From Polyangiales bacterium (lineage in GTDB: Bacteria > Myxococcota_A > Polyangia > Polyangiales > Ga0077539), in NCBI GenBank assembly GCA_044229975.1, contig JBGARZ010000007.1, positions 192,001-256,000 on the forward strand: a stretch of 64,000 nucleotides of DNA, in the 5' to 3' direction. The notes beneath the pieces were generated by a model, which searched no databases, was not told the DNA's origin, and saw nothing but the letters and a program-made list of their open reading frames with translations. Every line of letters starts with the position of its first letter. Within the stretch, counting starts at the first letter, position 1. Position numbers and translations under genes: made by a program. This document shows, in pieces, positions 19,364 through 51,282 of the stretch.

Positions 19364-19691
19364 AGGACGCCGAGTTCTCCTCCGCTTCCAACGTAGGGCA
19401 GCTCGCCGCGTCCACGCCGGAGTTCACCGTGCTGCCCTCGCGCTCGTCACGCTCGGTTCACTCCGGGCTATTTCACGAGGATCGCCCCGCCTGAAGCGGG
19501 GCTCAGAAGTACCTTGTGGAGGCATTCAGTTGGATGAAAGCGCTTGGACGGAGCCCCGCTTCAGGCGGGGTGATCCTCGTGAAATAGCCCGGAGTGAACC
19601 GGGCGCGACGGGCGCGGGGGCGGCACGGTGAACTCCGGCGTGGACGCGGCGAGCTGCCCTACGTTGGAAGCGGAGGAGAAATCGGTGTCCT
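19364..19691. repeat. Long hairpin element A (family 1): 141-bp inverted arms, 46-bp spacer
   Basis: Arms 19364-19504 and 19551-19691 (8 mismatches); spacer AGAAGTACCTTGTGGAGGCATTCAGTTGGATGAAAGCGCTTGGACG. Confidence 0.95.
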
Positions 19692-19811
19692 GACGATGCT
19701 CTGGACCGTCGGCTCCGCGGCCGCTCAATCCATGCGCCACAGCTCCTCGTTGATGCGTCGGTCGTACTCGTCGCCGCTCGCTTCGGCCGCGAGCCTACCG
19801 CACCCGCCGCG

Positions 19812-20566
19812 TCAGAACGTCCCGAGCAGCAAGAGCCCCGCCGACCTCCCGAGGAGCGACGGGGCGACGGTCCAGTGCGCGGACCCGGACCCGCGCGATG
19901 CGTCGACGCGGTCGAGGACGATCGTGCTGACGATGTGGCTCGTCGTCGCGGCGAGCGAGAGACCCGCGAGCGAGTACAGTGCGATCGCCTCCTCGTCGTG
20001 GTCGGCCGTGACCGCGAGCGCGACGCTGCCCACGGTCGCGAGGCCCCCGTAGATCGCGGAGACGACCATCGCGCCCGTCGTGTTGGTGCGTCGGCCCCAG
20101 GTGAGCCCCACGTGCACGACGGTGAACGCGGTCACCGCGGAGACGCGCCGATCCACGGGTCGCGCGGGCGTGCGCCGAGGCCGCCGTACCCCAGGCCGGC
20201 CATGCCCCAGTACGTTGCCGCCAAGAGCGTTGCCGGGAACGCGGCCTCCCCCATGGCGGGCTGGGTACGGCCGATGAGCCCCATCCAATACAGCGACGCG
20301 ATGCCCACGCCGGTGCCAAACGTCGCGTACACAGCGGAGGCGGCAAGCGACGGGCGCTCGTCGTTCGCGAACTCCACGGCCGACACGACGTAGGGCGTGA
20401 GGCTCAGCGCGGTCAGCTCAAGCAGGAAGGTGCCGCCGATCACCGCCCCGGCGGTCCCGTACACCACGGCGCCGATTCCGTGCGCGTGCGCGATGCTCGG
20501 GTGAGCCGCAAGCGACGCCAGGACCATCACACCCACCAGGCCGCTCCGGAGGCGCGTCATGGGCAT
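19812..20566 (-). pseudogene. Membrane protein interrupted by an apparent 1-bp frameshift near 20145
   Basis: Hydrophobic frame MPMTRLRSG...DPWIG continues in another frame as VSAVTAF...LLLGTF; span of 755 nt is not a multiple of 3. Confidence 0.65.
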
Positions 20567-20592
20567 TGATGATCGCACGCTGGAGCGACCGG

Positions 20593-21046
20593 TCAGAGTG
20601 CGAGCGTCATGAAGACGCTGTTGGGGTCGGGGCGGTAGTGCGCGTAGGGCCCGCACTCGACGAAGCCGTGTCGGCGGTAGAGCGCGATCGCCGGGTGGAA
20701 GTACGCCATCGACCCGGTCTCCAGACTGAGCCGGGTGTGACCCCGCTCCGTGGCCGTCGCGATGATGTGTCGCAGCAGCGCCGCGCCCACGCCGCGTCCG
20801 CGCGCAGCTTCGGCGGTGTGCATCGACTTCACCTCGCCGTGGTCGGGCGCGAACGCGTGCAGCGCGCCGATGCCGAGGAGCGCGTCGCCCTCCCACGCGG
20901 CCCACAGCGTGATGGACGGGATGCGGAGGCCGGAGAGGTCGAGCGCGTGGGCGCTGCCGGGCGGGGACGCCGCGCGCGCGGGTGAAGTGGACGCGCAGCA
21001 GGTCGATGATGCGCGGGTCGTCGAGGTCGGCGGGGAGGATGTTCAC
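20593..21046 (-). pseudogene. GNAT acetyltransferase (YedL/YsnE-like) with a frameshift in a (GC)n tract near 20975
   Basis: DLDDPRIIDLLRVH in one frame; SPPGSAHALDLSGL...EVKSMHTAEAARGRGVG...LSLETG...DPNSVFMT in another; span 454 nt. Confidence 0.8.
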
Positions 21047-21053
21047 GGGGCGA

Positions 21054-22043
21054 TCATCGCGCAGGTCGCGACGAACGGACGCGGGCCAGTTCGACGAGCA
21101 ACGCCTCGGCTCTCGGGTCGGTCTTCGCGAGCAGCGTCAGCTTCGCGACGGCGACCTCGGGCAACGCCCTGTTGTTCAGGATCCCCTGATTGAACCAGTA
21201 GTAGATGTGTCGATGGATCACGGGCCGCTCTTCGTCGAGGAGTGCGAGCGCCTCGTTCACATACCTCTCGTAATAGTTGAGCAGCCAGGGAAACTCCGCT
21301 TTCGCGGCCACGGCCTCGCCTGACGCGACGATGCCGTCCCGAGCCTCGATCGCGGCCGCGCGGACCTTCTTGCTGCGGTCGCCTGCGAGCGTTTCGAGCG
21401 TCGCGAGCGCAGGCGCCAGGCGCTCCGCCGCGTTGAGCGTGTAGTGGCCGACGTGATCGAGCATGGTCGCGCCGAGAAGGCGCACCTTGGCGTCGTCATC
21501 GGTGCAGAGATCGAGGATGTCGTCGATCGACTCCGCCCCGACGCCATCCAGCAAGATGTGCCAGTCGTTGCCCCTGCGCATCATCTGCAGCCACTGCGAC
21601 ACCGACCATAGCGAGATCATCGCTTCATCGGCTTTCGCCGCGGCCAACGGCGCTTCGAGGCGCAGCGCGACCTTCTCGCCGCCATCCAGCCAATCGAAGC
21701 GGAAGCCCAGGGTCACGAGCGTATCCTCCACGCTCGCCTTCAACTCGCCCTTCCATTGCCCCTGCGCGAGCACCTTGATGCTCGGGTAGAGGTCGTTGTC
21801 GACGTTGGTCGTCACGAGGTAGGTGCGTCTCTTCGATGTCTTCGAGAGCGCCATCGCGAGTGCACTTGCGTCCACCCTTTCCGATCCTGGCTCTTCATCG
21901 ATGATCGCGACATATCCCTTGTCGCCGTCGAACAACGCCCACGGGCGGTCGTCCTCGGGATCCTGTCGGGTGACCTTCAAGATCGTCGGTTCGAGCCGCT
22001 TCACGCTGCCAGGAGCGAGGACGATCCAGTAGGGCAGGTCCAT
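21054..22043 (-). CDS. Hypothetical protein with a HEAT-like helical C-terminal part
   Basis: 329-aa ORF; DDDAKVRLLGA and DRSKKVRAAAIEA HEAT-like motifs; lower GC3. Confidence 0.65.
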   Translation of the reverse strand: MDLPYWIVLAPGSVKRLEPTILKVTRQDPEDDRPWALFDGDKGYVAIIDEEPGSERVDASALAMALSKTSKRRTYLVTTNVDNDLYPSIKVLAQGQWKGELKASVEDTLVTLGFRFDWLDGGEKVALRLEAPLAAAKADEAMISLWSVSQWLQMMRRGNDWHILLDGVGAESIDDILDLCTDDDAKVRLLGATMLDHVGHYTLNAAERLAPALATLETLAGDRSKKVRAAAIEARDGIVASGEAVAAKAEFPWLLNYYERYVNEALALLDEERPVIHRHIYYWFNQGILNNRALPEVAVAKLTLLAKTDPRAEALLVELARVRSSRPAR

Positions 22044-22280
22044 GCGGGGACGGTAGGCCGTCCCCGCTGTCGCCGAACAGCGAACCCGACGTCAGCCCGC
22101 GCCGCGCCATCGTGTGCCGCGCCTCGTCCAGCGGTACCGCGAAGGTCTGCGCCCGCACCGCCGGCGCGACGAGCGTGAGGGAGAGCGTCAGGGCGAGAGC
22201 GTGTGGTCGCATGGTGGGCCAACCTCGTGCTCGCCGCGCTACTGGCAATCCTCCGATCTTGTCGCGCCTCGACGACCGGC

Positions 22281-23369
22281 TCAGGGTGCTCCGCCCTCCG
22301 TCAGCGCACGCATCAGGTCGACGGCCGAGCGGTGCACCAGGTTGGGCGCGATCTGTCCGCTCCACAGCGAGATCACATCGGAGCGCCCCGCCGACGCGGC
22401 CGCCGCCTTCAGGTGCCCGGCGATCCAGCTCTGGATGGGAAACGGCGGCAGCTCCGGCACGCGGCGATGCACCTCGCGCGTCCAGCGGTTGACGATGCCT
22501 CGCGCCAGTCGCCCGGTGAACGACCGCGTCAGCACCGTCTCACGCGCGTCGGCGCTGAAGAGCTTCTCGCGATGCGCCGGTGACGCGCCCGACTCCACGC
22601 ACGCCAGAAACGCCGTCCCGATCTGCACCGCGTCGGCGCCCAGCATCCGCGCCGCGGCCACACCACGGGCGTCGCACACGCCTCCCGCCGCGATGACTGG
22701 CGCCTTCACCCGCGGGGCCACGAGCTGCGTGAGCGCGAAGGTCCCCGTGAGGTTGTCCTCCGCGCTCCCGATGAACGACACCCGATGACCGCCCGCCTCC
22801 ATGCCCGTCGCGACGATGGCGTCGACGCCCGCCGCGTCGAGGGCCTCGGCCTCCGCGAGCGTGGTCGCCGTCCCGACGGTGACGATGTGCCTGCGCCGAC
22901 ACTCCGCGAGCACGGCCGCCGAGGGGATGCCGTACACGAAGCTGAACACCGGCGGCGCCGCGGCGAGTAGCGCCTCGATCTGCTCGTCGAAGGGGTGATG
23001 GAAGCGCGCGGGCAGCGCGGGCAGCGGGACGCCGAGCTCGTCGAAGTAGGGCGCGAGAACCTCCAGCGCGCGGGCATACACGTCGGGGGCGATGGCGAGC
23101 CCGCCGGGGTCGTGGTCGTTGACCCAGAGGTTGATGTTGAAGGGGCCGTCGGTCGCCGCGCGCAGCTCTGCGACGAGGGGGCCGATGCGCTCGGCGGGGA
23201 GGTTCACCGCGCCGAAGGAACCCAACGCCCCGAGGGACGACACCGTCGCTGCGAGCGCGACGCGGGAGAGCCCGCCGCCGAAGGGCCCCTGTACGATCGG
23301 GTGTCGCAACCCGAGCATCTGCGCCAGCCGCGACGAACCCGCTTTGCTCTCCCCGTGACTCGACACCAT
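22281..23369 (-). CDS. Nitronate monooxygenase family flavoprotein
   Basis: HPIVQGPFGGG, EAGGHR, PVIAAGGV.D.RG, GADAVQIGTAFL, TRSFTGRLARG, LWSGQ. Confidence 0.93.
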   Translation of the reverse strand: MVSSHGESKAGSSRLAQMLGLRHPIVQGPFGGGLSRVALAATVSSLGALGSFGAVNLPAERIGPLVAELRAATDGPFNINLWVNDHDPGGLAIAPDVYARALEVLAPYFDELGVPLPALPARFHHPFDEQIEALLAAAPPVFSFVYGIPSAAVLAECRRRHIVTVGTATTLAEAEALDAAGVDAIVATGMEAGGHRVSFIGSAEDNLTGTFALTQLVAPRVKAPVIAAGGVCDARGVAAARMLGADAVQIGTAFLACVESGASPAHREKLFSADARETVLTRSFTGRLARGIVNRWTREVHRRVPELPPFPIQSWIAGHLKAAAASAGRSDVISLWSGQIAPNLVHRSAVDLMRALTEGGAP

Positions 23370-23412
23370 CGCTCACCTCCGCCCGCGGTCTGTGCGGGCG
23401 AGGGATGCTCCG

Positions 23413-23922
23413 CTACCGTCGGCGCTGGCGCATCATCGTTCGGGCGAACTCGCCGTTGGAGGCGTTGAACGACGTGTAGTTGGGCCTGGCCGGTTGGCCC
23501 GTCAGCTCGACGCGGATGAACTCCTCGGCGCGCGTGCAGGTGAACACGAACTTCTGATCCCACGCCGTGCGCGCGATGCTGGTCGGCGAGAGCGTGTATC
23601 CCCCCTGCTCGCAGGCCCGGCGGCTGTCGATGAGCAGCTCCAGCACGTTGCGCTCGGCGCCGCCTTCGATGAAGTCCGGCGACGTCGGTCGCAGACGAAC
23701 GCCCGGGATGGCTGGTATCCACCGCGGCCAGCGTGGGTCGACGGCGGGCGCTGCCGGGGCCGCCGCGGGGGCGGCTGCCGCAGAGGGCATCGCGGGCTGC
23801 ACCGCGGGCGGGGTCGCCGTGGCGGTCGCGGTGGGGTTGGCGCTGCTCTCAGCGCGCTTGCATCCGCCCGCGAGGGCGAGGGTCGCGACGAGGGCATACG
23901 AGATGGTGGTGGGCTTGTTCAC
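23413..23922 (-). CDS. Hypothetical lipoprotein
   Basis: Lipobox LAGGC; Ala/Pro/Thr linker; GGAGG upstream. Confidence 0.65.
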   Translation of the reverse strand: MNKPTTISYALVATLALAGGCKRAESSANPTATATATPPAVQPAMPSAAAAPAAAPAAPAVDPRWPRWIPAIPGVRLRPTSPDFIEGGAERNVLELLIDSRRACEQGGYTLSPTSIARTAWDQKFVFTCTRAEEFIRVELTGQPARPNYTSFNASNGEFARTMMRQRRR

Positions 23923-24014
23923 GAGGGGCCTCCGATGCGAGGCACCACACCACGCCGCGCTGAAAGGCCCGCCTCAAGCGCCCTCAAGGAGCCTCAAGGA
24001 CGGGCGCGAGCCCG

Positions 24015-26099
24015 CTACAGCACGCACCCCGGCGGGCTCGCGGTCGAGCCGTTCACCAGCACCTGGAGCTGCACCCGCTCGCGCTCCCAGAAGCACAGCG
24101 AGTTCGCATAGAACAAATACCCATGCTGATACAGCGTCGGGTTGCGCCCGCGCGTGACCAGCCGCTCTGCGTCCGGCCAGTGCAGCGCCGCGTGCCTCCG
24201 CGCCACCACCGCTCGCCCCTCCGCCACCAGCGCGTCCAGTTGCGCCACCAGCGCCGGCGCCACTCCCTCGCGGCCGCCCTCTCCGAAGCGCAGCGCCGCC
24301 TCCCACGCCACCGCCGCGAAGCGCACGCGCAGCGCGTCCACCGCCACGCCGTCACGCACCTCCGCCATCCACGGGTCGCTCAGGTCGGCGCCGCTCGCCG
24401 TCACCGCCGCGAGCACCGCCTCGGTGTCCGTCGCGTGCTGTTGCAACGGCGTCAACACGTCGCGCACGAAGGCCGCCCGCCCCGCCGCGTCGAGCGCCGC
24501 CACCGCCGCGAACGCCGGCCGCCGCGGCTGCGCCACGATGCCGAGCCCTTCGCCCGCGTCGAGCACCGCCTCGCGCCCGGCCACGTACGGTCCGAGTCCG
24601 TGGGTGATGAGCGCGTCGTACTGGAGGTCGCCCAGCCGCGTGACCTGCCGCGCCACGATGCGCCCGCCCTCGCCCCACGGCGAGAAGAACTCCTCCATCA
24701 CATCGCCCCACCGCGGGGGTAGGTGATAGCCCATGCGCAGCACGGCGGCGTCGGTCTGCCAGTAGCCCCACTCCCACCCCGACGAGAACAGGCTGTGCTC
24801 GGTGAGCTCGCCGAAGCCACCGGCGCGGGCCGTCGCGCGCAGCCCGGCGAGGTCGTCGAAGCGCGCCCGGATATACACCGGCAGGTACGTCGGAACGCTG
24901 TTGTCGAAGGCCACCCAGTACGCCGACTCGGGGTGGTAGATGACCCGTTGCCCGGCGCGCAGTCGCTCCACGAGATACTCGCGGTGCTCGTCGAAGTTCT
25001 CGTGCCGGTACGCTCCGCCCGCGGGGCCAGAGAGCGGGTAGTACATCACCGTGTGCACCGACGGGACGATGCTCGGGTCGGCGTAGCGCACGAGGAAGTA
25101 GTAGAGCTGCGAGCGCCCCTGGTACTCGACGCGCAGCTCCTCCGAGTTGCCCACGTGGATGGTCGCCGACATCTCCGCCGTCGGTGACAGCTCGCCCACC
25201 ACCGCGCGCGCGTCGTTGACCCGCGCGATGAAGGTCTCCGGCGTGCTGCCCGAGAACTCCCCGAAGGTGAGGTTGATGACGTCCCACGCGACGCCGTCCA
25301 TGAGCACATGCAGGCGCGAGCGCATCTCGGCGCGCGGGTCGGCGACGTCGCGGTCGAGCAGATCAAACGCCCGCTGGAGGTTGCTGCGGCCGAAGAGCTG
25401 GATGCCCACACCGACCCGAACCCCGCGGCGATGCGCGTACTCCACGATGGCGCGGATGTGCGGTCGCCACGCGTCGGCGTTTTCGGCGGAGCGCTGGATG
25501 TCGTCGACGGCGACGACCTGGAGGTAGTTGCCGCGGTTCTTCACGAGCCAGTCGACGACGGACTTCGCGTGGGCGAGCTGACGGTCGCCGGGCGTCCAGA
25601 AGTCGAGCGACTCGATGGGGTGCAGCGTGTGGAGCTGAAGCCCGCGGACGGTCTGCTCCGGCGCGAACTGCGGGCCGAAGGCAGCGGGGTCGGCGGCGTC
25701 GAGGTTGACCTCCCACGGGCGCACCACCACGGTCGGATGGAAGTATCGATACCCGATGGTCTCCAGCAGGTGCGTGAGGCCGTACTGGGCGCCGAGGGCG
25801 TCGCCCGCGTGCACCGCCCAGACGTGGGCGGTGGGGGTGGAGGCGAGGCGTTCGAGGCGGTAGCACTCGCGGCAGGTGAGGTCGTTGAGCACGCGGATGG
25901 TGGGCAGCGCGGTCGACCCGGTCGCGACACCGAGACGCGGGAGCGCCGTCTCGCTGGCGTAGTCACGGAGCGGCGGCAGCCACGCAGCGGGCGCCTCGAC
26001 GCGAAACTCGGGCGACGGCCCGGCGTCGGCGGGCGGCGCAGGAGGCGCGGCGTCGGTGCACGCGGCGAGCAGGAGCGAGGCGAGGAGCGGGCTGCGCAT
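24015..26099 (-). CDS. Conserved hypothetical lipoprotein, possibly glycoside-hydrolase-like (GH20-type N-domain plus barrel)
   Basis: Lipobox LAAC; ECYRLE...VHAGDALGAQYGL resembles the hexosaminidase N-domain; RGLQLHTLHPIE. Confidence 0.65.
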   Translation of the reverse strand: MRSPLLASLLLAACTDAAPPAPPADAGPSPEFRVEAPAAWLPPLRDYASETALPRLGVATGSTALPTIRVLNDLTCRECYRLERLASTPTAHVWAVHAGDALGAQYGLTHLLETIGYRYFHPTVVVRPWEVNLDAADPAAFGPQFAPEQTVRGLQLHTLHPIESLDFWTPGDRQLAHAKSVVDWLVKNRGNYLQVVAVDDIQRSAENADAWRPHIRAIVEYAHRRGVRVGVGIQLFGRSNLQRAFDLLDRDVADPRAEMRSRLHVLMDGVAWDVINLTFGEFSGSTPETFIARVNDARAVVGELSPTAEMSATIHVGNSEELRVEYQGRSQLYYFLVRYADPSIVPSVHTVMYYPLSGPAGGAYRHENFDEHREYLVERLRAGQRVIYHPESAYWVAFDNSVPTYLPVYIRARFDDLAGLRATARAGGFGELTEHSLFSSGWEWGYWQTDAAVLRMGYHLPPRWGDVMEEFFSPWGEGGRIVARQVTRLGDLQYDALITHGLGPYVAGREAVLDAGEGLGIVAQPRRPAFAAVAALDAAGRAAFVRDVLTPLQQHATDTEAVLAAVTASGADLSDPWMAEVRDGVAVDALRVRFAAVAWEAALRFGEGGREGVAPALVAQLDALVAEGRAVVARRHAALHWPDAERLVTRGRNPTLYQHGYLFYANSLCFWERERVQLQVLVNGSTASPPGCVL

Positions 26100-26190
26100 C
26101 GTCGCGCAGCGTACCAGCGGACGGCAGAGCAGGTGATCGGCGCGACGGACGGGCTTGCGCGTGAGCGCGGCATCGGGCTGAAGTGCGACG

Positions 26191-26883
26191 ATGAGTGAGT
26201 CAGCGCCGGGGATGGTGTCGCGTCGGTCGTTGTTGGTGGGGACGGGGGCCGTCACGACCGCGGCGGTGATTCCAGGATGCGGCTCGACCGCGCGGCCGCC
26301 CGTCTACACGACGGACGTGGTCGCCGTGGACACGGCCGTCAGCGATGTGGCCCGCGACGTGGCGATGGACGCCCCCGACGCCGGGACGGGCCTCGACGCG
26401 GGCGATGCGGCGAGCGCACCCATCGACGCGGTGGATGCCTCCGACGTGGTGGACGCCGTCGATGCGGTCGATGCGCCGGACGTGGTGGACGTTGTCGATG
26501 TACCGATCGATGTACCGATCGATGTACCGATCGATATGCCGGTGGTGTGTACGCTCGATGCGGGGCCCGTCAGCGACTACGCGGTGGGTACGTTTCGGGT
26601 GTTTCTTTCGCAGCACGCCATCGTCGGTCGTGATGCAGGGGGCTTGTATGCGTTTACGAGCGTGTGCCCCCACTCGGGCTGCGACGTCGACCTCCCCGAC
26701 GCGAGCGGAACCATCACCTGCCCCTGTCACGGCTCGCAGTTCGACGCCAACGGCGACCTCACGCGCGGCCCCGCGAAGAGCTCGCTCATCCACGTCCCGG
26801 TCACCCTCAGCGCCGATCGCCGGGTGTGCGTCGCGACGACCGTGCTGGAGTCCGATCGCGCGCGCCGGGTGGCTGTGTCGTAG
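26191..26883 (+). CDS. Tat-exported Rieske [2Fe-2S] lipoprotein
   Basis: SRRSLL twin-Arg signal plus GC; acidic Asp/Val/Pro linker; CPHSGC and CPCHGSQF Rieske boxes. Confidence 0.9.
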   Translation: MSESAPGMVSRRSLLVGTGAVTTAAVIPGCGSTARPPVYTTDVVAVDTAVSDVARDVAMDAPDAGTGLDAGDAASAPIDAVDASDVVDAVDAVDAPDVVDVVDVPIDVPIDVPIDMPVVCTLDAGPVSDYAVGTFRVFLSQHAIVGRDAGGLYAFTSVCPHSGCDVDLPDASGTITCPCHGSQFDANGDLTRGPAKSSLIHVPVTLSADRRVCVATTVLESDRARRVAVS

Positions 26884-26895
26884 GGACTCGTGCCG

Positions 26896-27046
26896 TTTCG
26901 ACGTGTCCGAGGTGACCTTGCGAGGAACCGGCGACCGTGAGGGCGCCGGAATCCAAGGGCCCGTGGTGCGTCGCAGTCTCCTCGGAGGGATTCCGGCGCC
27001 CTCACGGTCGCCGGTTCCTCGCAAGGTCACCTCGGACACGTCGAAA
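26896..27046. mobile_element. Perfect 59-bp inverted repeat with 33-bp spacer, flanked by a 10-bp direct repeat (element D)
   Basis: 26896-26954 is the exact reverse complement of 26988-27046; GTAGGGACTC at 26880-26889 and 27057-27066. Confidence 0.85.
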
Positions 27047-27158
27047 GGGCTGCTTTGTAGGGACTCACCCCTCGTCGGGGTCTGAGGTTCGGAGCAGGCG
27101 TCGGCGGCGTGGGCTGGGACGGTCATGTCGTCGGTCCCTTGTGGGGACCAACGACGAG

Positions 27159-27196
27159 CACCTCGCGTCGCCACGACGCCTACTCCGAATCCCAGG
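27159..27196 (-). repeat. GTAG-type REP-like repeat, copy 1
   Basis: Minus strand reads CCTGGGATTCGGA-GTAG-GCGTCG-TGG-CGACGC-GAGGTG; identical to 30543-30580. Confidence 0.8.
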
Positions 27197-27199
27197 TCG

Positions 27200-28066: not shown

Positions 28067-28107
28067 CGCTCCACCGATGCGCGCGTGCGCGGTTACACTC
28101 GCGGTCG

Positions 28108-28737: not shown

Positions 28738-28749
28738 TGCGAGGGGGGT

Positions 28750-29685: not shown

Positions 29686-29747
29686 GGAGGCGGGTTCTAC
29701 GCGCGGAGGTCGCGCGGGCGCAACGGGCGGGGGTACCGTCGCGGGCG

Positions 29748-30230: not shown

Positions 30231-30542
30231 CGACGGATCAGCCGAAGTCGCGCTCGCCCGGCACCACCACGGGCTCGCCCGCGATCGCCCGCGCCGCCTG
30301 CCGCCCAGTCCCGCGACGCCGCTGTTGCCCATCGGCGCGCTCGCACCACCGCGCGCCAGCGCTCGGACGCTGCCGACATCTCCGCGGTCACGGCCGGGAC
30401 CGCGCCCGATCACCTTGTGAGGACGAGCGCCGCGCACGGGCTCAGCGGAGTCGAAGCGTCGCGCCCAATCCCTCGCCCTGTTCAGCACCCATCGAGGCGT
30501 ATCACCAGTGGCGCGGACGGGTCGAGTGGGGCCCACGACAAC

Positions 30543-30580
30543 CACCTCGCGTCGCCACGACGCCTACTCCGAATCCCAGG
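30543..30580 (-). repeat. GTAG-type REP-like repeat, copy 2
   Basis: 38-bp exact match to 27159-27196. Confidence 0.8.
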
Positions 30581-30694
30581 CGCTCTCCCAGGTCGCTGGA
30601 TCAGACCCGCGCCCGCGTCCGGCTCATCTCGTTGCTGGGTTGGGTTCCCCATGCGGTCGTGTCCCAAGTTGAAGCCAAGTGTCCCAAGTTGAGA

Positions 30695-30949
30695 ACCCGC
30701 GTCGCTCACGCCGGAGTTCACCGTGCCGTCCTCGCGCTCACCGCGTCCGGTTCACTCCACGGCTATTTCACGCGGATCGCCCCGCTTGAAGCGGGGCTCC
30801 GTGGCTCGTCATGCGATGATTGGTGGCCCACGATCGGATTCACGGAGCCCCGCTTCGAGCGGGGCGATCCGCGTGAAATAGCCGTGGAGTGAACCGGACG
30901 CGGTGAGCGCGAGGACGGTACGGTGAACTCCGGCATGAGCGACGCAGGT
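30695..30949. repeat. Long hairpin element B (family 1): 109-bp inverted arms, 37-bp spacer
   Basis: Arms 30695-30803 and 30841-30949 (4 mismatches); spacer GCTCGTCATGCGATGATTGGTGGCCCACGATCGGATT; arms clearly homologous to element A. Confidence 0.95.
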
Positions 30950-31101
30950 GTCCTACTTTGGCGGGCGCTCGATAATCGGTGTCCAAACTCGGACACCACT
31001 CCCCATGCGCTCGCGTTGACAGCGGCGATCGGGCGGCGTTCGATCGCGCGCAACGACCCGTCGGAATGGCTCTCGAACGAACCCGCAGGGAGGGTTGATC
31101 G

Positions 31102-31731: not shown

Positions 31732-31783
31732 CGGCGCCGCGTCGACGGCGTGCTGCCGCTCGCGGCGGCGACGGCCAACGGAC

Positions 31784-34244: not shown

Positions 34245-34260
34245 GCGGGGAGCGCGCGCA

Positions 34261-36915: not shown

Positions 36916-37030
36916 CGCGCGGTCGGCGTCGCGCCGCCCAGCACGGCGCCAGGCCCCGCCGGTAACCGAGGCGCCCACCAGCGCCCGCCGAAGCCCCTCT
37001 CCGTCGCCCCCGCGGCGTCGACTGGCCCCT

Positions 37031-38107: not shown

Positions 38108-41100
38108 CACCCCGTCACCAGCGGCTCCAGCTCCGCGAGCATCGCCTCGGCGTGGTTGATCCCTTCGCCCACCTCGAAGCGGCGCGACAGCTTCATGTCC
38201 GGTGAGAGCTTGTACGGCGACCTTCGATTCGCGCACAGCTCCATCACCTTCGCGGCGTCGAGCGGCGAGTCCTCCTTCAGGTGAATCACCACACGCTCGC
38301 GGTTGGCCTCGATGCCCAGCGCGCGCAGCTTCCGCAGCCGCACCTTCACCGCCATCACGCGCACCAGCAGCCGCGCGGGCGGCGGCGCCGGGCCGAAGCG
38401 GTCTTCCATCTCCGTCGCAAACTCCTGCACGTCGTCATCGCTGAACGCGCTCGCCAGTCGCTTGTACAACGACAGCCGAACCCCGACGTCCTCGATATAC
38501 TCCTCGGGAAGGTAGTTGGGCTCGTCGAAGGTGAGCTCCGGGTCGACGCCCGGAATCACCGGCTGACCCTTCAGCTCACCAATCGCCTCTTCCAACATCT
38601 GGCAATACAGGTCGAAGCCCACCGCCGACACGTTGCCCGACTGCTCGGCGCCCAGCAGATCACCCGCGCCGCGCAGCTCCATGTCCAGGGAAGCCACCTG
38701 GAAGCCCGACCCCAGTTCGGTGAAGCGCTCGATGGCGTCGATGCGCGCCCTCGCCTCATCGCTCATCTTCGACACCGGCGGAACAAACAAGTAGCAATAC
38801 GCCCGCTCCCGCGACCGACCCACGCGACCGCGCAACTGATAGAGCTGCGACAGCCCGAAGAGATCAGCCCGGTCGAGAATCATCGTGTTGGCGCGCGGGA
38901 TGTCGATGCCGCTCTCGATGATGGCCGTCGCGCAGAGCACGTCGTAGCGCCCTTCGATGAAGTCCATCATCACCGTCTCCAGCGTCTCCGGCGCCATCTG
39001 CCCGTGCGCCACCGCCACCCGCACGCTGGGCAACAGCTTCTGGAGCTTGTCGGCCCGCTCGTAGAGCCCCTCGATGCGGTTGTACACATAGAAGACCTGG
39101 CCGCCGCGGGCGAGCTCGCGGGTCACGGCCTCCTTCAACACATTGGCGTCCTCGCGACACACCACGGTACGGATGGCGCGACGGTCCATCGGGGCGGTGG
39201 TGATGAGGGAGAGGTCGCGCATGCCCGCCACCGCCATCTGGAGCGTGCGGGGAATCGGGGTCGCCGAGAGCGTGAGCACGTCGAGCTGCGCCCGAAGCTG
39301 CTTGATGCGCTCTTTGTGGGTCACACCGAAGCGCTGCTCCTCATCGACCACCAACAGACCAAGGTCCTTGAAGTGAACGTCTTTCGAGAGCAGACGGTGG
39401 GTGCCTACCACCACGTCGATCTTGCCTTCCTTGAGGCGTTTGATGGTGTCGCGCTGCTCGGCCGCGGTCACGAAGCGCGAGAGCACCGCGACCTCCAACG
39501 GATACGGCGAGAAGCGGTCGGCGAAGGTTCGGTAGTGCTGCTGCGCGAGCACCGTGGTGGGACACAGCACCGCCACCTGCGCGCCCTGGATGGCGACGTG
39601 GAAGGCAGCCCGCAAAGCCACTTCGGTCTTGCCGAAGCCGACGTCACCGCAGACGAGGCGGTCCATCGGGGTGGGCGCTTCGAGGTCGCCCATCACCTCG
39701 TCGATGGCGCGCACCTGGTCGCCCGTCTCTTCAAAGGGGAAGGTCGCCTCGAACTCCTGATCCAACATCCCCTTCGGTGGAAACACCCGCCCGGGGTGCG
39801 CCTTGCGCTCTGCCTGCAATCGCAAGAGCTCATCGGCCATCTGGCGGACGGCGCGCTCGACGCGGGCCTTGGCCTTCGCGAAGGTGCTTCCACCCAACCG
39901 ATCGACGCGCGGTGTGCCTTCGCCGCCCGTGAACTTCTGGATCTGGTTGAGTCGGGTAACCGGCAGGTAGAGCTTGTCGCCGCCGGAGTACTCGATGATG
40001 AGGACATCGATCTTCTGGGTTCCGACTTCGCGGTGGATGAGGCCGAGGTACTTCCCGATGCCGTGGTCGACGTGCACCACGAAGTCGCCCACCGCGAGCG
40101 CGCGCAGGTCGTCGATGAAGGGGCGCGCCCCCGACTCGCCGTTGCGGCGACGGGTGGTGCGACGCGCGCGGGCGCCGAAGATCTCCTCCTCGGTGACCAA
40201 CGCGAGCAGCCGCGACGGGAGCGCGAAGCCGCGCGCGAGGTCGCCCACCACCACTTCGACCGCGGCGGTGTCGGGGCGATGTTCGCGCTGGAGGAGGGCG
40301 GGGGAGAAGGTTCCGTGGTGGGCTTTCACCGCGAGGCCGTGGCCGCGGGCGATGGTGGCGATGCGCTCGGCCTGCGTGGGCGTGTGCGCCGTGAGCAGCA
40401 CCCGGTAGCCCTCCTCGAACCAGTAGCGGCACTGCTCCACCAGCGGAACGAGCGCGTCGCTCTTGCCCTTCTCGGCGCGCATCGACTTGATGTCTGCGGC
40501 GAGGCGAGACAACGGATCGGCCCCAAGGTCGATGACGGCCGCGTCCATCGGGACGTGTTCGAGGCCAGCAGGGTCGTCGTCGGTCGCACCCTCGGTAGAG
40601 CGAACGACGAGCTCGTGGTGCGCGGCCACGGGGAAGGCGGAGAGCGCGGCGAAGAGCTCGGGCTCGGTGAGGTAGTGGTCGGCGAAGGCGAAGGTCGGGA
40701 GGCGCTTCTCGACGCGGGCGCGGTGGTCGTCGGCGCCGCGGGTGAGCTCGTCGCGGAGGGCAGAGAGGCAGCGGGAGGAGTGGTTCCAGACGACGCGGAG
40801 GGAGGATGGGAGGTAGGCGGTGATGGGTTCGAGCGCGTCGTAGTACGCGGGGAGAAACCCTTCGGCGCCGAAGAAGGCGCGGCCGCTGTCGACGTCTTCG
40901 AGGAGCTTGCTCGATTGATGGCTCGGGAGGTCGACGGCGTCAGCGAGCTCGCGCACACGGCGGCGGGCGCGGGCCCGTTCGGCGTCGCCGACGAGGGCTT
41001 CGCGAACGGGGTGGAGGAAGAGTTCCTTGATGGGGCGGACGGTGCGCTGGCCTTCGGGGTCGAAGAGCTTGATGGTGAGGCAGAGGTCTTCGTCGAGCTC

Positions 41101-41727
41101 GACGCGGGCGGGCCAGCGCGAGCTCGGCGGCCACACGTCGATGACGGCGCCGCGGGCCGCGAAGGTGCCGGGATCTTCCACCACCGGGACGCGCAGGTAG
41201 CCGCCCTCGACGAGACCCTGGAGCAGCTTGTCGCGGTCGACGAGCTCCTCGGCCTGCACCAGGTCGCAGCGCGGGGTGAGCGCGGCGCGAGGCACCACGC
41301 GGCGCACGAGGGCGGGCGCGGGGACGACGAGCACGCGCCACGGGAGGGCTTGCGACAGGTGGAAGAGCGTCGCGAGGCGGGACATCGCGGTGCGGCGATC
41401 GGGCGCCACGTCGACGAAGGGGGACTGCTCGGGCGAGGGGAGGACGAGCACCTCGCCGCGGCCTTCTTCGGCGGCGTCGCGGTCTTCGGGGGTTCCGAGG
41501 AAGAAGGCGACGTCGGCGGCGAGGCGGCGGGCTTCTTCGGCGTCGGCGGTGACCACGACGAGGGGGAGGGCGCCGGGCGCGCGAGCGGACTCGGCGAGGA
41601 AGAGGCCGAGGGCGCCGCCGCCGGCGCGGACGAGGTCGTGGCGCGGAGCGGGTGGTGCTTCGGTGAAGCGGCGCACCGCGACGGTGAGGTCGAGGCCGAG
41701 CGAGAGGGTGGGAGAGTCGTCGTCCAC
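38107..41727 (-). CDS. mfd: Transcription-repair coupling factor
   Basis: UvrB-like N-terminus, VVHVDHGIGKY (RID), DRLVCGDVGFGKTEVA, DEEQRFGV, SATPIPRTL, QLRGRVGRS, TRCF C-terminal domain. Confidence 0.98.
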   Translation of the reverse strand: MDDDSPTLSLGLDLTVAVRRFTEAPPAPRHDLVRAGGGALGLFLAESARAPGALPLVVVTADAEEARRLAADVAFFLGTPEDRDAAEEGRGEVLVLPSPEQSPFVDVAPDRRTAMSRLATLFHLSQALPWRVLVVPAPALVRRVVPRAALTPRCDLVQAEELVDRDKLLQGLVEGGYLRVPVVEDPGTFAARGAVIDVWPPSSRWPARVELDEDLCLTIKLFDPEGQRTVRPIKELFLHPVREALVGDAERARARRRVRELADAVDLPSHQSSKLLEDVDSGRAFFGAEGFLPAYYDALEPITAYLPSSLRVVWNHSSRCLSALRDELTRGADDHRARVEKRLPTFAFADHYLTEPELFAALSAFPVAAHHELVVRSTEGATDDDPAGLEHVPMDAAVIDLGADPLSRLAADIKSMRAEKGKSDALVPLVEQCRYWFEEGYRVLLTAHTPTQAERIATIARGHGLAVKAHHGTFSPALLQREHRPDTAAVEVVVGDLARGFALPSRLLALVTEEEIFGARARRTTRRRNGESGARPFIDDLRALAVGDFVVHVDHGIGKYLGLIHREVGTQKIDVLIIEYSGGDKLYLPVTRLNQIQKFTGGEGTPRVDRLGGSTFAKAKARVERAVRQMADELLRLQAERKAHPGRVFPPKGMLDQEFEATFPFEETGDQVRAIDEVMGDLEAPTPMDRLVCGDVGFGKTEVALRAAFHVAIQGAQVAVLCPTTVLAQQHYRTFADRFSPYPLEVAVLSRFVTAAEQRDTIKRLKEGKIDVVVGTHRLLSKDVHFKDLGLLVVDEEQRFGVTHKERIKQLRAQLDVLTLSATPIPRTLQMAVAGMRDLSLITTAPMDRRAIRTVVCREDANVLKEAVTRELARGGQVFYVYNRIEGLYERADKLQKLLPSVRVAVAHGQMAPETLETVMMDFIEGRYDVLCATAIIESGIDIPRANTMILDRADLFGLSQLYQLRGRVGRSRERAYCYLFVPPVSKMSDEARARIDAIERFTELGSGFQVASLDMELRGAGDLLGAEQSGNVSAVGFDLYCQMLEEAIGELKGQPVIPGVDPELTFDEPNYLPEEYIEDVGVRLSLYKRLASAFSDDDVQEFATEMEDRFGPAPPPARLLVRVMAVKVRLRKLRALGIEANRERVVIHLKEDSPLDAAKVMELCANRRSPYKLSPDMKLSRRFEVGEGINHAEAMLAELEPLVTG

Positions 41728-41892
41728 GGGGGGAGCGGCGTAGCACGCTCCGACGCCCGCAGCCTGAGCGCGAACCTGGCAGCGTGCGGAGCCCTGCCCC
41801 TGCGCCCTGAGCGCGGGGGTAGGGCGCGCGGCAGCGGGGAAGGGGGCCACCACAACCGACGCCTCGGGAAGGACGTCCGGTATCCTCGCGCC

Positions 41893-43539
41893 GTGACCCA
41901 CGTACGCCTCGCCTCAGCGCTCCTGATCTCTTCCCTCGGCTGCGCCTCGGCGCGACCCGTGGTGGTTGCTCCCGTCGCTGCCGCGGTGGTCCCCGTCGAC
42001 GCGCCCGCCGAGGCCCTCGCATGGGGAGACACCCGCGCGACGCTCGATCGCACCGCGGTCCGCGACCACGACGGACGACCTGCGCGCCGCTACGCCATCG
42101 AGCTCACGGCGGGGCAGCGGGTGTACTTCGTGATGCGCTCCAGCGACGTCGACTCGCGCCTCGTGCTCGACGGACCCACCGGCCTCCACGTCGACAACGA
42201 CGACGCCTTCCCCGGCAACAACGACTCCGCCGTGATGATCGTCGTGCCCGCCGCGGGTCGCTACACGGTGACGGCGACCACCGTCGGTCGCAACCAGTCG
42301 GGCGCCTTCACGCTGCGCGCGGAGAGGCTCACGGCGGCGAGCGAGGGCGACGCCATCACCCTCGGCGCCACGGCGGACGCGACGCTCGAAGCGCGGCCCG
42401 CGCAGTGGATGCCCGGTCGGCGCTTTCACTTCGAGGCGCGCGGTGGGGCGCGGGTCCGGCTGCGTGTGACGTCGACGGACTTCGACACGGTCGCCACGGT
42501 GCTCGGGCCGCGCGGCGAGACCTGGATCAACGACGACGCCAACGACCTCGGACCTGACCGTCGCGATCGCCCGCTCGACAGCACGCTGGACGTGGTGATC
42601 CCCGAGAGCGGCACCTACCACCTCGTGGTGACGTCCTACGGGGGACAGGCCATCGGGCGCTTTCACGTCGCGACGAGCGAGCGACCGCCGGTCATCCTGC
42701 GCGCAGGCGAGAACGTCCCGACCGAGGGATACGCCGGGGCCGACGGGCGCGGCCGGGTGCTCGGTCTGTACGCGGGCATCACGGCGTACACCGGCCACTC
42801 GACGCTCTACGGGTGCGCCGACGACGCGCGTTTCCTCGGCGAGGCGATGCGGCGCTCGCACCTCCAGGGAGCGGCCGATCAGGAGGTTCTGGTCGACGCT
42901 GGCGCAACGCGCGCGGCCTTCCTCGCGGGGCTCTCGCGACTCGCGGCGCGGGCGCGACCCGAGGACGTGGTGGTGGTGTTCTTCTCGGGGCACGGCAACG
43001 TGCGACCGGCGCCGGAGGGAGACCGCACCGAGCTCGACGGCGTCGACGAGACCATCGAGCTCATCGACGGTCCCATCGCCGACACGGAGGTCGTCGCGGC
43101 GCTCGCGGGGTTGCGTGCGGGCACGGCGATCATGGCGCTGGACTCCTGCCACGCCGGCGGATTTGCGGACGACTGGGTCACGGCACCAGGGCGCATCGGG
43201 CTCTTCTCCTCCGACGCCGACGTGCTGTCGGACACGGCCGAACCCCGGCGCGCGGGCGGATATCTCTCGTGGTACCTGCGACGCGCGGTGCTGGGCGAAG
43301 CCGACGCGCGTCCGCGGGATGGCGTTCTGCAGGCGGGAGAGCTGACGGACTACCTCTACGCGGGCTTCCTCACCGACCATGCGCGGATGAACCCCGCGGT
43401 GGGCAACGATCCGTATCAGCGGCTGGTGACGGCGCGCGGGAGCGTCCCGTGGACGCAGGCGTTGTGGACGTACCCGCGCGGGAGCGACGGGGCGCTGGCG
43501 CCAGTGCCAACGGTGCCGCTCACGTCACCGGCGCCGTGA
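41893..43539 (+). CDS. Caspase-like (peptidase C14) lipoprotein with two PPC-like domains
   Basis: Lipobox SLGC; two D..L.L.GP.G...NDD modules; catalytic FFSGHG and LDSCHAGG. Confidence 0.85.
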   Translation: MTHVRLASALLISSLGCASARPVVVAPVAAAVVPVDAPAEALAWGDTRATLDRTAVRDHDGRPARRYAIELTAGQRVYFVMRSSDVDSRLVLDGPTGLHVDNDDAFPGNNDSAVMIVVPAAGRYTVTATTVGRNQSGAFTLRAERLTAASEGDAITLGATADATLEARPAQWMPGRRFHFEARGGARVRLRVTSTDFDTVATVLGPRGETWINDDANDLGPDRRDRPLDSTLDVVIPESGTYHLVVTSYGGQAIGRFHVATSERPPVILRAGENVPTEGYAGADGRGRVLGLYAGITAYTGHSTLYGCADDARFLGEAMRRSHLQGAADQEVLVDAGATRAAFLAGLSRLAARARPEDVVVVFFSGHGNVRPAPEGDRTELDGVDETIELIDGPIADTEVVAALAGLRAGTAIMALDSCHAGGFADDWVTAPGRIGLFSSDADVLSDTAEPRRAGGYLSWYLRRAVLGEADARPRDGVLQAGELTDYLYAGFLTDHARMNPAVGNDPYQRLVTARGSVPWTQALWTYPRGSDGALAPVPTVPLTSPAP

Positions 43540-44521
43540 GGGCGATCGGGTCGAGGTGTGCCTCGACGAAGCGCGCGAGCTCCTTCGCCGCGGCCGCCGC
43601 GCTCGGGTGAAACGCCGCGAAGACCGCCGCGTTGTGGGGCATGCCGGGCGCCACGTAGAGGGTCACGTCGACTCCCGCGCGCTTCATCCGATCGGCGAGC
43701 GCCACGATGTCGTCGTGCAGGATCTCCGCGTCGCCGCCCTCGATGAGCGTGGGCGGCAGCCCGTCGAGCCTTCCGTACGCGGGCGACACCCGCGGGTCGT
43801 CGAGCGGAACATCCCCCGCGAAGGCCCGCGCCTGTCGGTCGAGCACCGCGCGCGTGCCGTAGTCGCAGTCGGCGTTGGTCTTGTACGACGCGCCCGGCAT
43901 GGTCAGGTCGGCCCACGGTGACATCAACACGAGGGCGCGCGGCTGCGGTCCGCCGCGGTCGCGCAGGGCCATCGCGAGGACGAGCGCGAGGTTGCCGCCC
44001 GCGGAGTCACCGGCCAGGACGACGTCCTCCGCGGCGACGCCACCTGCGACGAGTGCGTCGAAGGCGGCGAGCGCGTCGTCGCGCTGCGCGGGGAAGGGGT
44101 GCTCCGGCGCGAGGCGGTACTCGGGGGCGACGACCCGGGTGCCGCTCTCCACGGCGAGTCGCGCGATGGCCTCCGCGTGGGTCGTGCGCGCGGAGCCGAA
44201 GAGGTACGAGCCGCCGTGGAAGAACAACACCACCCCGCGCCGACGCACCTCGCGCGGGGCGAAGGACACCGCCGTGACGCCTCCCAGCGTCTCGTCGCGC
44301 AGCGCGACGCGGCGCGCGAAGTCCTTGGGGTAGGGGCGGGCGTTCATGTCGGCGCGGAGCTGTGGGTAGGGCCACGCGGCGGTGTCGTCCGAGTCGCGGC
44401 GCAGGTACGCTACGGTCCCCTCGAACATGAACGACCAGCCGGGCCGCAGCGGTCCGCGCGACCAGCGCGAGCGGAGCACGGCGAAGAACGTGAGCACGAA
44501 GAGTCGGAGGGCGCGCAGCAT
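43520..44521 (-). CDS. Alpha/beta hydrolase (HSL-family esterase)
   Basis: FFHGGSY, YRLAPEHPFP, GDSAGG, SPWADL, GMPH. Confidence 0.93.
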   Translation of the reverse strand: MLRALRLFVLTFFAVLRSRWSRGPLRPGWSFMFEGTVAYLRRDSDDTAAWPYPQLRADMNARPYPKDFARRVALRDETLGGVTAVSFAPREVRRRGVVLFFHGGSYLFGSARTTHAEAIARLAVESGTRVVAPEYRLAPEHPFPAQRDDALAAFDALVAGGVAAEDVVLAGDSAGGNLALVLAMALRDRGGPQPRALVLMSPWADLTMPGASYKTNADCDYGTRAVLDRQARAFAGDVPLDDPRVSPAYGRLDGLPPTLIEGGDAEILHDDIVALADRMKRAGVDVTLYVAPGMPHNAAVFAAFHPSAAAAAKELARFVEAHLDPIALTAPVT

Positions 44522-45587
44522 GGTGGATGCCCCGGAGGATGGGGGCGACGGGGCGGGGGGTTCCAGGCCCGGCGCGCCAGATCGCAGGGCCTCGCGCGCC
44601 ATCGACGCGACCGACCACGGCGGGGTCTCCGGTCGCATGACCATGCGGGTGCTGCGTCTGCTCGAAGACCGCGGGCACCCGGCGACGGAGGTGTGTCGTC
44701 GATGGGGTCTGCCGCACGCGACGCTCGTCGACCCCGACGCGCGCGTCGACTACGCCACGAGCGACCGCCTCGTCGAAGCCGCCGTCACGCTGCTCGGCGC
44801 GGAGGGCCTGGGGCTCGCGATCGCGGGCGTCCACGACGACCGCACCTACGACGCCGCGGGCTTCGTGCTGATGACGGCGGCGACCTTCGGCGAGGGGCTG
44901 GAGCGCGCCTTCGCGTACCAGCGACTCTGGGGCGACGGCGAGCGCTTCACGCTGCACCACGGTGTCGACGAGGTGGCCGTGCGTTTCCGGCACCCGGGGT
45001 CGAGCGACGTGGCCCGCGCGGTGTTGTCGGAGCTGGCGTTGCTGGAGACGCTCGGGGGCGCGAAGGCGCTGGTCGACCCCATGGTGGTGCCGGTGGCGGT
45101 GACCTTCGCGCACGCGCCGCTCGGGCCCACCGACGCGCTGTGCATGGCCTTCGGTGTCGAGCCCGTCTTCGGCGCCGCGGTCGACGAGATCAGGCTGCCG
45201 CGCGAGCTCGTCGATCGGCCGATGCAGGTGCCGCGGGAGCTGTTGTTGAGGGCGTTCGACAGGCAGGCGCAGCGGTCGCTGGAGGCGCTGCCCGAGCGGC
45301 CGTCGTTCGCGGCGCGGGTGCGGGCCGCGTGCGAGGGGCCCGACGGTCTCTCGCTCGACGTCGGTGGGGCGGCGCGACGACTGCGCGTGAGCCCACGAAC
45401 GCTGCAACGCCGACTCTCAGCGGAGGCGACGACCTTCGCGGAGGTTATCGACGGGCTGCGCCGAGAGCGCGTCGAGCGACTGCTGGCGAGGGGCGGGCGC
45501 TTGAAGGAGGTGGCTTTCCTGGTGGGCTTCGCGGACGCGAGCGCGCTGACGAGAGCTCGCGCGCGCTGGGCCCAACAGCGTGGGTGA
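44520..45587 (+). CDS. AraC family transcriptional regulator (start uncertain: 44520 or 44637)
   Basis: VSPRTLQRRLSAEATTF...LKEVAFLVGFADASALTRA HTH; OruR-like N-domain. Confidence 0.9.
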   Translation: MVDAPEDGGDGAGGSRPGAPDRRASRAIDATDHGGVSGRMTMRVLRLLEDRGHPATEVCRRWGLPHATLVDPDARVDYATSDRLVEAAVTLLGAEGLGLAIAGVHDDRTYDAAGFVLMTAATFGEGLERAFAYQRLWGDGERFTLHHGVDEVAVRFRHPGSSDVARAVLSELALLETLGGAKALVDPMVVPVAVTFAHAPLGPTDALCMAFGVEPVFGAAVDEIRLPRELVDRPMQVPRELLLRAFDRQAQRSLEALPERPSFAARVRAACEGPDGLSLDVGGAARRLRVSPRTLQRRLSAEATTFAEVIDGLRRERVERLLARGGRLKEVAFLVGFADASALTRARARWAQQRG

Positions 45588-45598
45588 GGCACACCGGG

Positions 45599-45832
45599 GT
45601 GCGCCGGAGTTCGCGTGACCCCACGCGTCGAAGTGCAGTCGCTCACTCCGGGCTATTTCACGTTGTCACCTCGCTACGCGAGGTTGCAAAAACGCTCCGT
45701 TGCCGATGAGCGAATCGAAGGGTTGTTCGTCAAGGCCAGTGCTGCAACCTCGCGTAGCGAGGTGACAACGTGAAATAGCCCGGAGTGAGCGACTGCACTT
45801 CGACGCGTGGGGTCACGCGAACTCCGGCGCAC
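45599..45832. repeat. Long hairpin element C (family 1): perfect 90-bp inverted arms, 54-bp spacer
   Basis: 45599-45688 is the exact reverse complement of 45743-45832; shares CGCCGGAGTTC and CACTCCGGGCTATTTCACG with element A; 18-bp direct repeat at 45589-45606 and 45829-45846. Confidence 0.95.
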
Positions 45833-45849
45833 ACCGGGGTGCGCCGAGA

Positions 45850-51272: not shown

Positions 51273-51282
51273 GACGTTCTGC

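Follow-up and report, generated by a model that had tools for sequence, protein, structure and literature searches.

The window analysed here, a 64,000-nucleotide (nt) stretch of a Polyangiales genome (genome G000, contig C33, positions 192001-256000; assembly of 10.0 Mb, 71% GC, 93% complete), carries three long hairpins, named A, B and C, each made of two inverted arms that enclose a short spacer. These hairpins are most probably gene-less doublets of an arm that, on contig C34, brackets the gene of an HUH/Y1 transposase of subclass 1.2, and this enzyme likely copies them. They are non-autonomous elements similar to REPINs and TIRtrons, with an uncatalogued putative transposase partner whose role in cleavage we infer. 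They are not a new defence or insert-capturing system.

The three hairpins of a preliminary description of this DNA were reproduced in position, with arms of 141, 109 and 90 nt that differ by 8, 4 and 0 mismatches around spacers of 46, 37 and 54 nt (copies A, B and C, respectively). The order of the arm motifs and the presence of two different inner stems were also as described, and the spacers (50, 57 and 56% GC) are indeed AT-richer than their host DNA (71.7% GC for the window). The boundaries given for copy B (30695-30949) had to be corrected: this copy extends over 30655-31000, between two exact 8-bp direct repeats CCCCATGC. Copy C is predicted to fold as a single hairpin (z = -26).

A Genome-Wide Family of Hairpin Doublets

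The 12-mer GGCTATTTCACG occurs 63 times in the genome, against 0.36 occurrences expected from base composition. A relaxed motif gave 122 matches, 118 of them in head-to-head pairs: 114 matches form 57 short pairs, 4 form two wide pairs and 4 have no arm context. The genome scan for arm pairs suggested earlier thus found 57 gene-less doublets, window copies included (38 C-type and 19 A/B-type). An additional A/B copy with a variant linker is found at C34:166251.

Each arm consists of an outer stem (CCGGAGT/ACTCCGG) around a variable loop of ~34 nt, a GCTATTTCA linker and an inner stem of 7 bp; a strict scan for this layout was passed by 86 of the 114 arms. The inner stem had been reported to change in sequence while its pairing is kept. 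The stems are as reported, and GCCCCGC and ACCTCGC are markers of two subfamilies. Within the C subfamily, pair 4 of the inner stem is T-A in 59 arms, C-G in 12 and mispaired in 3 (n = 74 arms). On the opposite strand the linker reads as ATAG immediately before the outer stem, with the tags pointing to the centre of the doublet, like the foot of a repetitive extragenic palindrome (REP). At this place, where REPs carry GT[AG]G, most arms have ATAG, the C34:166251 copy has GTAG, and related loci have TAGC, AAGC or CAGC. The A/B arms resemble a mosaic of the C34 arm family and of a family found on contig C23.

According to crude gene calls, none of the 57 doublets lies inside a gene, 23 of the 38 C-type copies separate convergent gene ends (background, 451 of 2474 gaps), and 46 of the 53 stop-facing ends of C-type copies are at most 47 nt away from the stop codon. 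The family is extragenic and repeated, and its doublets outnumber its singlets, as in REPIN/RAYT systems. The Rfam scan of the window returned tRNA only; with a relaxed E-value, the surroundings of copy C and another A/B copy gave generic hairpin matches only.

A Y1 Transposase Gene between C-Type Arms

The wide pair at C34:47357-47876 encloses a single open reading frame (ORF), P0001, of 146 amino acids (aa); a larger copy with a transposase gene between its arms, envisaged in the preliminary description, is therefore present in the genome. P0001 is an HUH/Y1 transposase (Pfam Y1_Tnp, 76.8 bits) that passes the NCBIfam IS200 model (NF033573; 59.1 bits, cut-off 55) and falls below the RAYT model NF047646 (30 bits, cut-off 80). 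It weakly matches the solved transposases 2xm3 and 2xma, which we take to be ISDra2 TnpA. Its closest relatives come from Polyangiales, Deltaproteobacteria and Myxococcaceae. Its assignment to subclass 1.2 is based on motifs: DHVH, WQ and YVREQPLHH (Y---Q--HH) fit that subclass in Table 1 of PMC6006769.

Four Y1 genes were counted in the genome, every one flanked by a repeat of its own. The window holds none of them, and tblastn with the transposase gave no match there, in agreement with the earlier remark that no cognate enzyme is visible there. Paralogues of P0001 show 57% and 38% identity. There is one Y1 gene per arm family in this genome, and the C34 arms, in single copy, enclose tnpA alone; several gene-bearing units exist in the congener G002 and two in G011. 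The second wide pair is a C copy whose spacer holds an IS66 element. This IS66-family insertion (C23:501329-503034, L002) is flanked by an 8-bp duplication, as judged by eye, and an identical copy is found on C37. Two further Y1 genes resembling subclass 1.2 have arms of their own, at C23:54430-55095 (L004; 28 matches that form short doublets) and C23:67598 (L003; 4 matches only). A retron/msDNA-like origin was considered and rejected, as no reverse transcriptase lies between the arms.

Related Loci and the Acido-Lenti-1 Motif

Homologues of P0001 were identified in all 8 congeners and in 21 of the 24 family members searched. The exact 17-mer of the arm is found in none of the 8 congeners. Close homologues keep the layout, with covariation of the outer stem (CCGGAGT/ACTCCGG, CCGGGGT/ACCCCGG, CTGGGGT/ACCCCAG), and short doublets of the genome's own arm are present in G001, G002, G005, G007, G009 and G011. 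Extending the comparison to 80 related tnpA loci from many phyla, an inverted arm pair (score of at least 40) surrounds the gene in 66 (best shuffle, 35; distant-flank controls, 0/62) and the Y...Q..HH motif is present in 78. Three planctomycete genomes differ in this respect, one showing inverted pairs, one mostly single matches and one a tandem run. An 18-mer scan of the genome collection yielded 19 single matches without arm context, which were judged to be chance.

Some of these arms are recognised by the Rfam model of the Acido-Lenti-1 RNA motif (RF01687; Weinberg et al. 2010, PMC2864571), which scored above threshold at 7 places in 4 of the 20 related loci tested. The matches fall on gene-flanking arms in 3 of those 4 loci: on both sides of tnpA in L051 and L085, and upstream of it in L071, where the linker is GCTATTTCC in place of the GCTATTTCA of the window family. 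Scores at the gathering threshold were obtained neither in the window, nor around C, nor for a further A/B copy; the length of the first loop is the probable reason. Acido-Lenti-1 is catalogued as an RNA of unknown function, as it still is in 10.64898/2026.10.21.760802. It shares with the arms a stem, a GCTA-type linker and a second stem, and differs in that its first stem encloses ~4 nt, against ~34 nt here, where the window copies receive no score.

Spacers and Arm Symmetry

The preliminary description regarded the spacers as unique. The three window spacers do differ from one another, but each has relatives elsewhere in the genome: the B spacer is 45/45 identical to that of C34:414028, the C spacer 40/52 identical to that of C19:517516, and the best match of the A spacer is 29/46. 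Similarity exceeds the 99th percentile of shuffles for 73% of the 703 C-type and 36% of the 171 A/B-type spacer pairs. Unlike outer ends allowed 17 A/B copies to be oriented; among their related-spacer pairs, 25 of 45, including B and its twin, were found in inverted orientation. Outside the 57 pairs there are 20 genomic spacer matches, 16 to two further copies of the family and 4 of 18-22 nt. A search with the A and C spacers gave no phage match (the B spacer and plasmids were outside this search). Remnants of the tnpA interior were rejected as a source, with 3/38 and 1/19 spacers above the 95th percentile of shuffles. The centres are drifted relatives, homologous within each subfamily, and not captured inserts, so the variable acquired inserts supposed earlier were not borne out. 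Their pooled GC content (58.8%, against 69.8% for crude intergenic DNA) may, at a guess, result from mutational drift. In a close relative, the spacer of one C-type copy (L205) is expanded to a tandem array of a 12-nt unit.

The arms of one copy are closer to each other than to those of other copies throughout the family, as first noticed in the window (median of 1-2 differences within a copy versus 8-11 between copies). The nearest sequence to an arm is its partner in 31 of 38 C and 12 of 19 A/B copies; another copy is nearer in 4 and 4. Copy-private variants are present on both arms in 12/25 (C) and 11/26 (A/B) cases, versus 0.5-0.6 after random re-pairing. The symmetry continues at least 10 nt past the core in 12 of 38 copies, versus 44 of 1406 cross-copy pairs, and in one copy of the close relative (L210) the inversion reaches ~75 nt into the unique flank. 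This fits in-place template switching or conversion. Arm homogenisation via template switching (PMC5941160), spacer inversion (PMC8604942) and compensatory changes between REPIN arms (PMC3116915) have been described. The suggestion that one arm is templated from its partner during spread or by conversion holds as far as copying is concerned; since arms are copied in place and into flanking DNA, this is not only a by-product of spread.

Mobility and the MITE-Like Shell

A metagenome scan recovered loci of the close relative from one assembly; 12 of 13 were kept, L204 being left out for want of arm context. Their flanks are 82-95% identical to G000. G000 also has a copy at three of these sites (L208, L209, L212) and lacks one at the other nine; only two of the 12 copies are complete. 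The presence and absence of copies at orthologous sites supports the earlier proposal of a non-autonomous mobile element, and the comparison of orthologous loci advised at that time gave 9 of 12 sites without a copy in G000, with rearranged junctions. The congeners are ~73% identical in genes and too distant for such a comparison.

The two subfamilies have different surroundings. C-type copies show no conserved outer end and no excess of direct repeats (6/38 vs 34/300 cross-copy). The A/B copies have fixed outer ends ~56 and ~67 nt outside the core, forming a shell of ~100 bp like that of a transposable element of the miniature inverted-repeat type (MITE). Both ends are recognisable in 11 of the 19 copies, whose flanking 8-mers have 0, 0, 0, 0, 0, 1, 1, 2, 2, 2 and 3 mismatches; only 2 of 163 cross-copy control pairs have 2 mismatches or fewer. 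These target duplications point to spread of the A/B composites by a DDE transposase. In an independent sequencing run, four contigs start to align at 30654-30655, and three of them are preceded there by other sequence. No sequencing-run contig spans a joint of any copy, at low coverage and with the flanks of the B locus uncovered. Copy A retains no target duplication at its flanks. Its two outer ends are both of the alpha type, the beta end having probably been overwritten through arm copying. A bare shell of 101 bp, without a doublet, lies at C32:914522-914622.

A different shell with CTGATGG ends is found in congeners, where it holds several different hairpin cargoes or none. Leaving out three end matches that were weak (5 mismatches) and three duplicates, 22 CTGA-ended elements were counted, 16 with a 9-bp duplication (at most 1 mismatch), 4 with an inverted flank and 2 with neither. 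In L347 the CTGA-type end precedes an IS4 transposase (246 bits, cut-off 160). In L123 (G002:C122) a whole Y1 gene with its arms is enclosed by CTGA ends and by a direct repeat of 9 bp, as if a DDE-type shell had moved the gene itself. For the A/B shell, the IS1 and IS256 models gave no match, two PF01609 matches have no fitting ends, and the end motif is not repeated in any of 300 order-level genomes. Its GGT.GTG end presumably resembles those of IS1/IS256-type elements.

Comparison with Known Systems

The closest parallels are REPINs with their RAYT/TnpA-REP partners (Bertels & Rainey 2011, PMC3116915; Corneloup et al. 2021, PMC8266576; 10.1101/2021.07.10.451892). The likeness comprises extragenic inverted doublets with a palindromic arm, a variable spacer, compensatory arm changes and a hairpin fold, species-specific arms that flank a low-copy HUH/Y1 transposase gene, and perhaps a tetranucleotide at the stem foot. 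The partner, however, is a class 1 enzyme (Y---Q--HH) and not a Group 2/3 RAYT (class 2, Y---NP). The arms also differ, being ~85 nt long with two stems and inward tags, against ~20-40 nt. Furthermore, one subfamily resides in a shell with target duplications, and gene-bearing units are multi-copy in some congeners.

TIRtrons and their TIRYT proteins, described together with tail-tail (TT) REP dimers by Di Nocera et al. 2013 (PMC3733652), likewise have a tyrosine transposase gene within long, partly self-complementary inverted repeats, as well as gene-less dimers, tag-inside (TT) and with variable spacers. TIRYTs are class-2 proteins, mostly of subclass 2.1 with a C-terminal helix-turn-helix, which is lacking here; the 26 TIRYTs were assigned to subclasses 2.1, 2.2 and 2.5, not 1.2 (PMC6006769). 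The text of PMC3733652, as far as available, does not mention myxobacteria, and its GTAG families may already include some cyanobacterial or Planctomycetes-Verrucomicrobia-Chlamydiae (PVC) arms. The GGGGWSAS motif of the TIRtron repeats is fitted, by eye, by an 8-mer of the variable loop in some C arms (window 45809-45816), but by none in A/B or tnpA-flanking arms.

Subclass 1.2 (Quentin et al. 2018, PMC6006769) agrees with P0001 in its DH[IV]H, WQ and Y---Q--HH motifs, its length (~148 aa; P0001 has 146) and its occurrence as low-copy, divergent paralogues within one genome. It is listed there as 'REP: no', without typical terminal structures, and a search of its two supplements showed no REP row for this subclass. 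The system described here differs by its long structured arms, with dispersed doublets. The long arms found here and at 66 of the 80 related loci contradict the published REP negative, not the protein assignment. Subclass 1.2 is, by our own reckoning, probably the same as the IS200 'Group 3', for which no duplicates and abundant flanking 16-mers were reported (Bertels et al. 2017, PMC5581495). Classical IS200/IS605 elements share the IS200-family transposase; they differ by non-inverted ends with small subterminal hairpins, many near-identical copies and, often, a tnpB gene.

The A/B shell also resembles bacterial DDE MITEs, with short terminal repeats, fixed ends, an 8-bp target duplication and no gene, and the analogous congener shell shares its end with an IS4-family element; it differs by its cargo, a Y1-type hairpin doublet. 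We found no link between subclass 1.2 or Acido-Lenti-1 and such doublets in the open literature (ISfinder was outside the search). The elements had initially been taken as possibly undescribed unless they matched a catalogued family. They do have the architecture of REPINs and TIRtrons, and distant arm relatives are Acido-Lenti-1, but the window copies are below that model.

Proposed Mechanism and Alternative Explanations

The C34 enzyme would spread the doublets in the way proposed for REP-associated transposases and REPINs. TnpA would bind the folded arm on single-stranded DNA, be guided by the ATAG/GTAG-like tetranucleotide at the outer stem's foot, and cleave and rejoin the DNA via its HUH motif and Tyr114. 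Such recognition of folded arm and tag is suggested by TnpA-REP and IS608, for which guide-directed cleavage of single strands has been described (PMC8266576). The A/B copies are likely passengers, which a DDE transposase acting on the shell would have spread. Polymerase template switching or inter-arm recombination likely equalises the arms, flips the spacer and sometimes copies the flank, and the spacer likely drifts under little sequence constraint.

Several points weigh against a transposase of this subclass as the agent of spread. Binding and cutting of the arms by P0001 are proposed from its sequence and by analogy, and PMC6006769 reports no REP for subclass 1.2. A detectable arm pair is absent in 14 of the 80 related genes, and no Y1 gene with exact A/B arms was found in the 93%-complete assembly. 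The symmetric inverted ends do not fit the left-end/right-end scheme of IS200, which makes the excision step hard to place. No clean empty-site junction is available for C-type copies because the intergenic DNA is rearranged, and gain is thus indistinguishable from loss. As for the shell, searches of the same 93%-complete assembly with PF03400, PF00872, PF01609 and end scans detected no DDE transposase with A/B ends, and the bare shell could be a deletion product instead of a pre-insertion state.

It is unlikely that all copies are MITEs moved by DDE transposases alone, the Y1 gene being a passenger or relic. The terminal repeats and 8-bp duplications of the A/B copies, the gene-bearing unit L123 between its 9-bp direct repeats and the derivation of the CTGA-ended shells from an IS4 element speak for it; the C-type copies, without conserved outer end or direct-repeat excess, do not, nor do the differing hairpin cargoes (or none) of one shell and the fact that the arm layout follows the Y1 subclass across phyla. 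A primary function of the arm as a structured RNA of the Acido-Lenti-1 type, acting at mRNA 3' ends and only secondarily repeated, is very unlikely. It would account for the preference of C-type copies for convergent gene ends and their closeness to stops (both from the crude gene calls), for related arms scoring as RF01687 and for stem covariation. However, positions are not conserved between close relatives (9/12 sites differ), the arm is always in an inverted pair, which would sequester both stems, and it brackets a DNA transposase gene. A bias to gene 3' ends is also usual for REP elements.

Capture of variable foreign inserts between fixed repeats is highly improbable: the spacers are AT-richer than intergenic DNA and more variable than the arms, yet they belong to a few homologous lineages, some identical between copies, A and C have no phage match, and 16 of the 20 outside genomic matches are to two further family copies. 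Long near-perfect palindromes can be generated by assembly, and the preliminary description had considered a fold-back artefact. This is barely conceivable here, being effectively ruled out by independent assemblies: complete copies (L210, L213) exist in an independent metagenome assembly and independent runs agree on the ends. The asymmetry of the outer ends, the target duplications and the IS66 insertion in one spacer also stand against it.

Features of the Window and Other Repeats

The coordinates of the three copies are given in Table 1. Copy C lies between the stop codons of two convergent genes, an AraC-family gene (44382-45587, +) and a protein kinase gene (45850-47247, -); the 18-nt direct repeat around it is peculiar to this copy and not found across the subfamily.

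Table 1. Positions of the hairpin doublets and their parts in the window.
Copy	Feature	Position	Strand	Basis or remark
A	Degenerate outer MITE end, alpha type	19349..19416	+	end typing
A	Hairpin doublet core, A/B subfamily	19417..19638	.	sequence, layout scan
A	Arm make-up			outer stem CCGGAGT..ACTCCGG, GCTATTTCA linker, inner stem GCCCCGC/GCGGGGC
A	Spacer	19505..19550	.	46 nt, 50% GC, related to other A/B spacers but diverged
A	Right outer alpha end, truncated	19639..19693	-	end typing
B	Left 8-bp direct repeat CCCCATGC	30647..30654	+	target-site duplication
B	Beta outer end of MITE-like shell	30655..30710	+	begins GGTCGTGTCC
B	Hairpin doublet core, A/B subfamily	30711..30933	.	
B	Spacer	30804..30840	.	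37 nt, identical to C34:414028 spacer, inverted relative to outer ends
B	Alpha outer end of MITE-like shell	30934..31000	-	finishes GGACACCACT
B	Right 8-bp direct repeat CCCCATGC	31001..31008	+	
C	18-nt direct repeat, overlaps copy start	45589..45606	+	second copy 45829-45846
C	Hairpin doublet core, C subfamily	45604..45827	.	arms as around Y1 transposase gene on C34
C	Left arm	45604..45684	+	sequence, fold, layout scan
C	Left-arm outer stem	45604-45610		paired with 45645-45651
C	Left-arm GCTAT tag	45652-45656		ATAG-C on other strand, at foot of stem
C	Left-arm inner stem	45668-45674		paired with 45678-45684
C	Spacer	45689..45742	.	54 nt, 56% GC, aligns with C-subfamily spacer lineage

The window holds other repeats. 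REP-like units of ~53 nt form tandem and inverted clusters at 10414-10654, 12453-12883 and 51282-51595; this second family has 146 matches in the genome and fits the arrays around a different Y1 gene (C26:71082) with unusual motifs (EHVH; YVCDEHH). Another ~53-nt repeat, finishing with CTACTCCGAATCCCAGG, is found at 27144-27196, 30528-30580 and 51530-51582. Of its 5 genomic copies, two neighbour the bare shell (C32:914.5k) and one precedes copy B by ~70 nt. An unrelated long hairpin at 26892-27050 has 63-nt arms, 98% complementary, and a 33-nt spacer, and its arm probe matched that place only in the genome. Coding repeats are present as well (53343-56582 and 5151-5958), of ~460 nt (cysteine-rich) in a long minus-strand ORF and of ~114-120 nt in a plus-strand ORF.

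Insertions into hairpins were observed outside the window. A group II intron of ~2 kb (C4:1430-3594; reverse transcriptase/maturase, 418 bits on L352) has near-identical copies at C32:707833, C34:217381, C14:51495 and C34:360614; such introns lie inside doublets of a sister arm family, which suggests that the intron targets hairpins. Of the 12 C-type copies in the close relative, 5 (L202, L207, L209, L211, L212) are interrupted at one point of the inner stem by a sequence that leads into another hairpin family (a doublet in L240, similar to the C23:67.6k arms), resulting in hybrid doublets.

Significance

A broader proposal, to which we give even chances, is that subclass-1.2 Y1 transposases form a widespread uncatalogued REPIN-like system (Myxococcota, PVC, Cyanobacteria, Acidobacteria) whose substrate is the Acido-Lenti-1 'RNA', and that the myxobacterial doublets, at times with tnpA, hitchhike in DDE MITEs, giving a two-tier arrangement with two routes of spread. 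If true, this system would represent an IS200-like stage toward domesticated RAYTs. The doublets described here give a probable DNA partner to a transposase subclass listed in the literature as without one, and an abundant Rfam family whose function is unknown gains a testable identity. Class-1 enzymes accompanied by doublets of REP type also bear on the origin of REPIN/RAYT systems from IS200, and the nested copies preserve natural traces of how arms homogenise and spacers invert.

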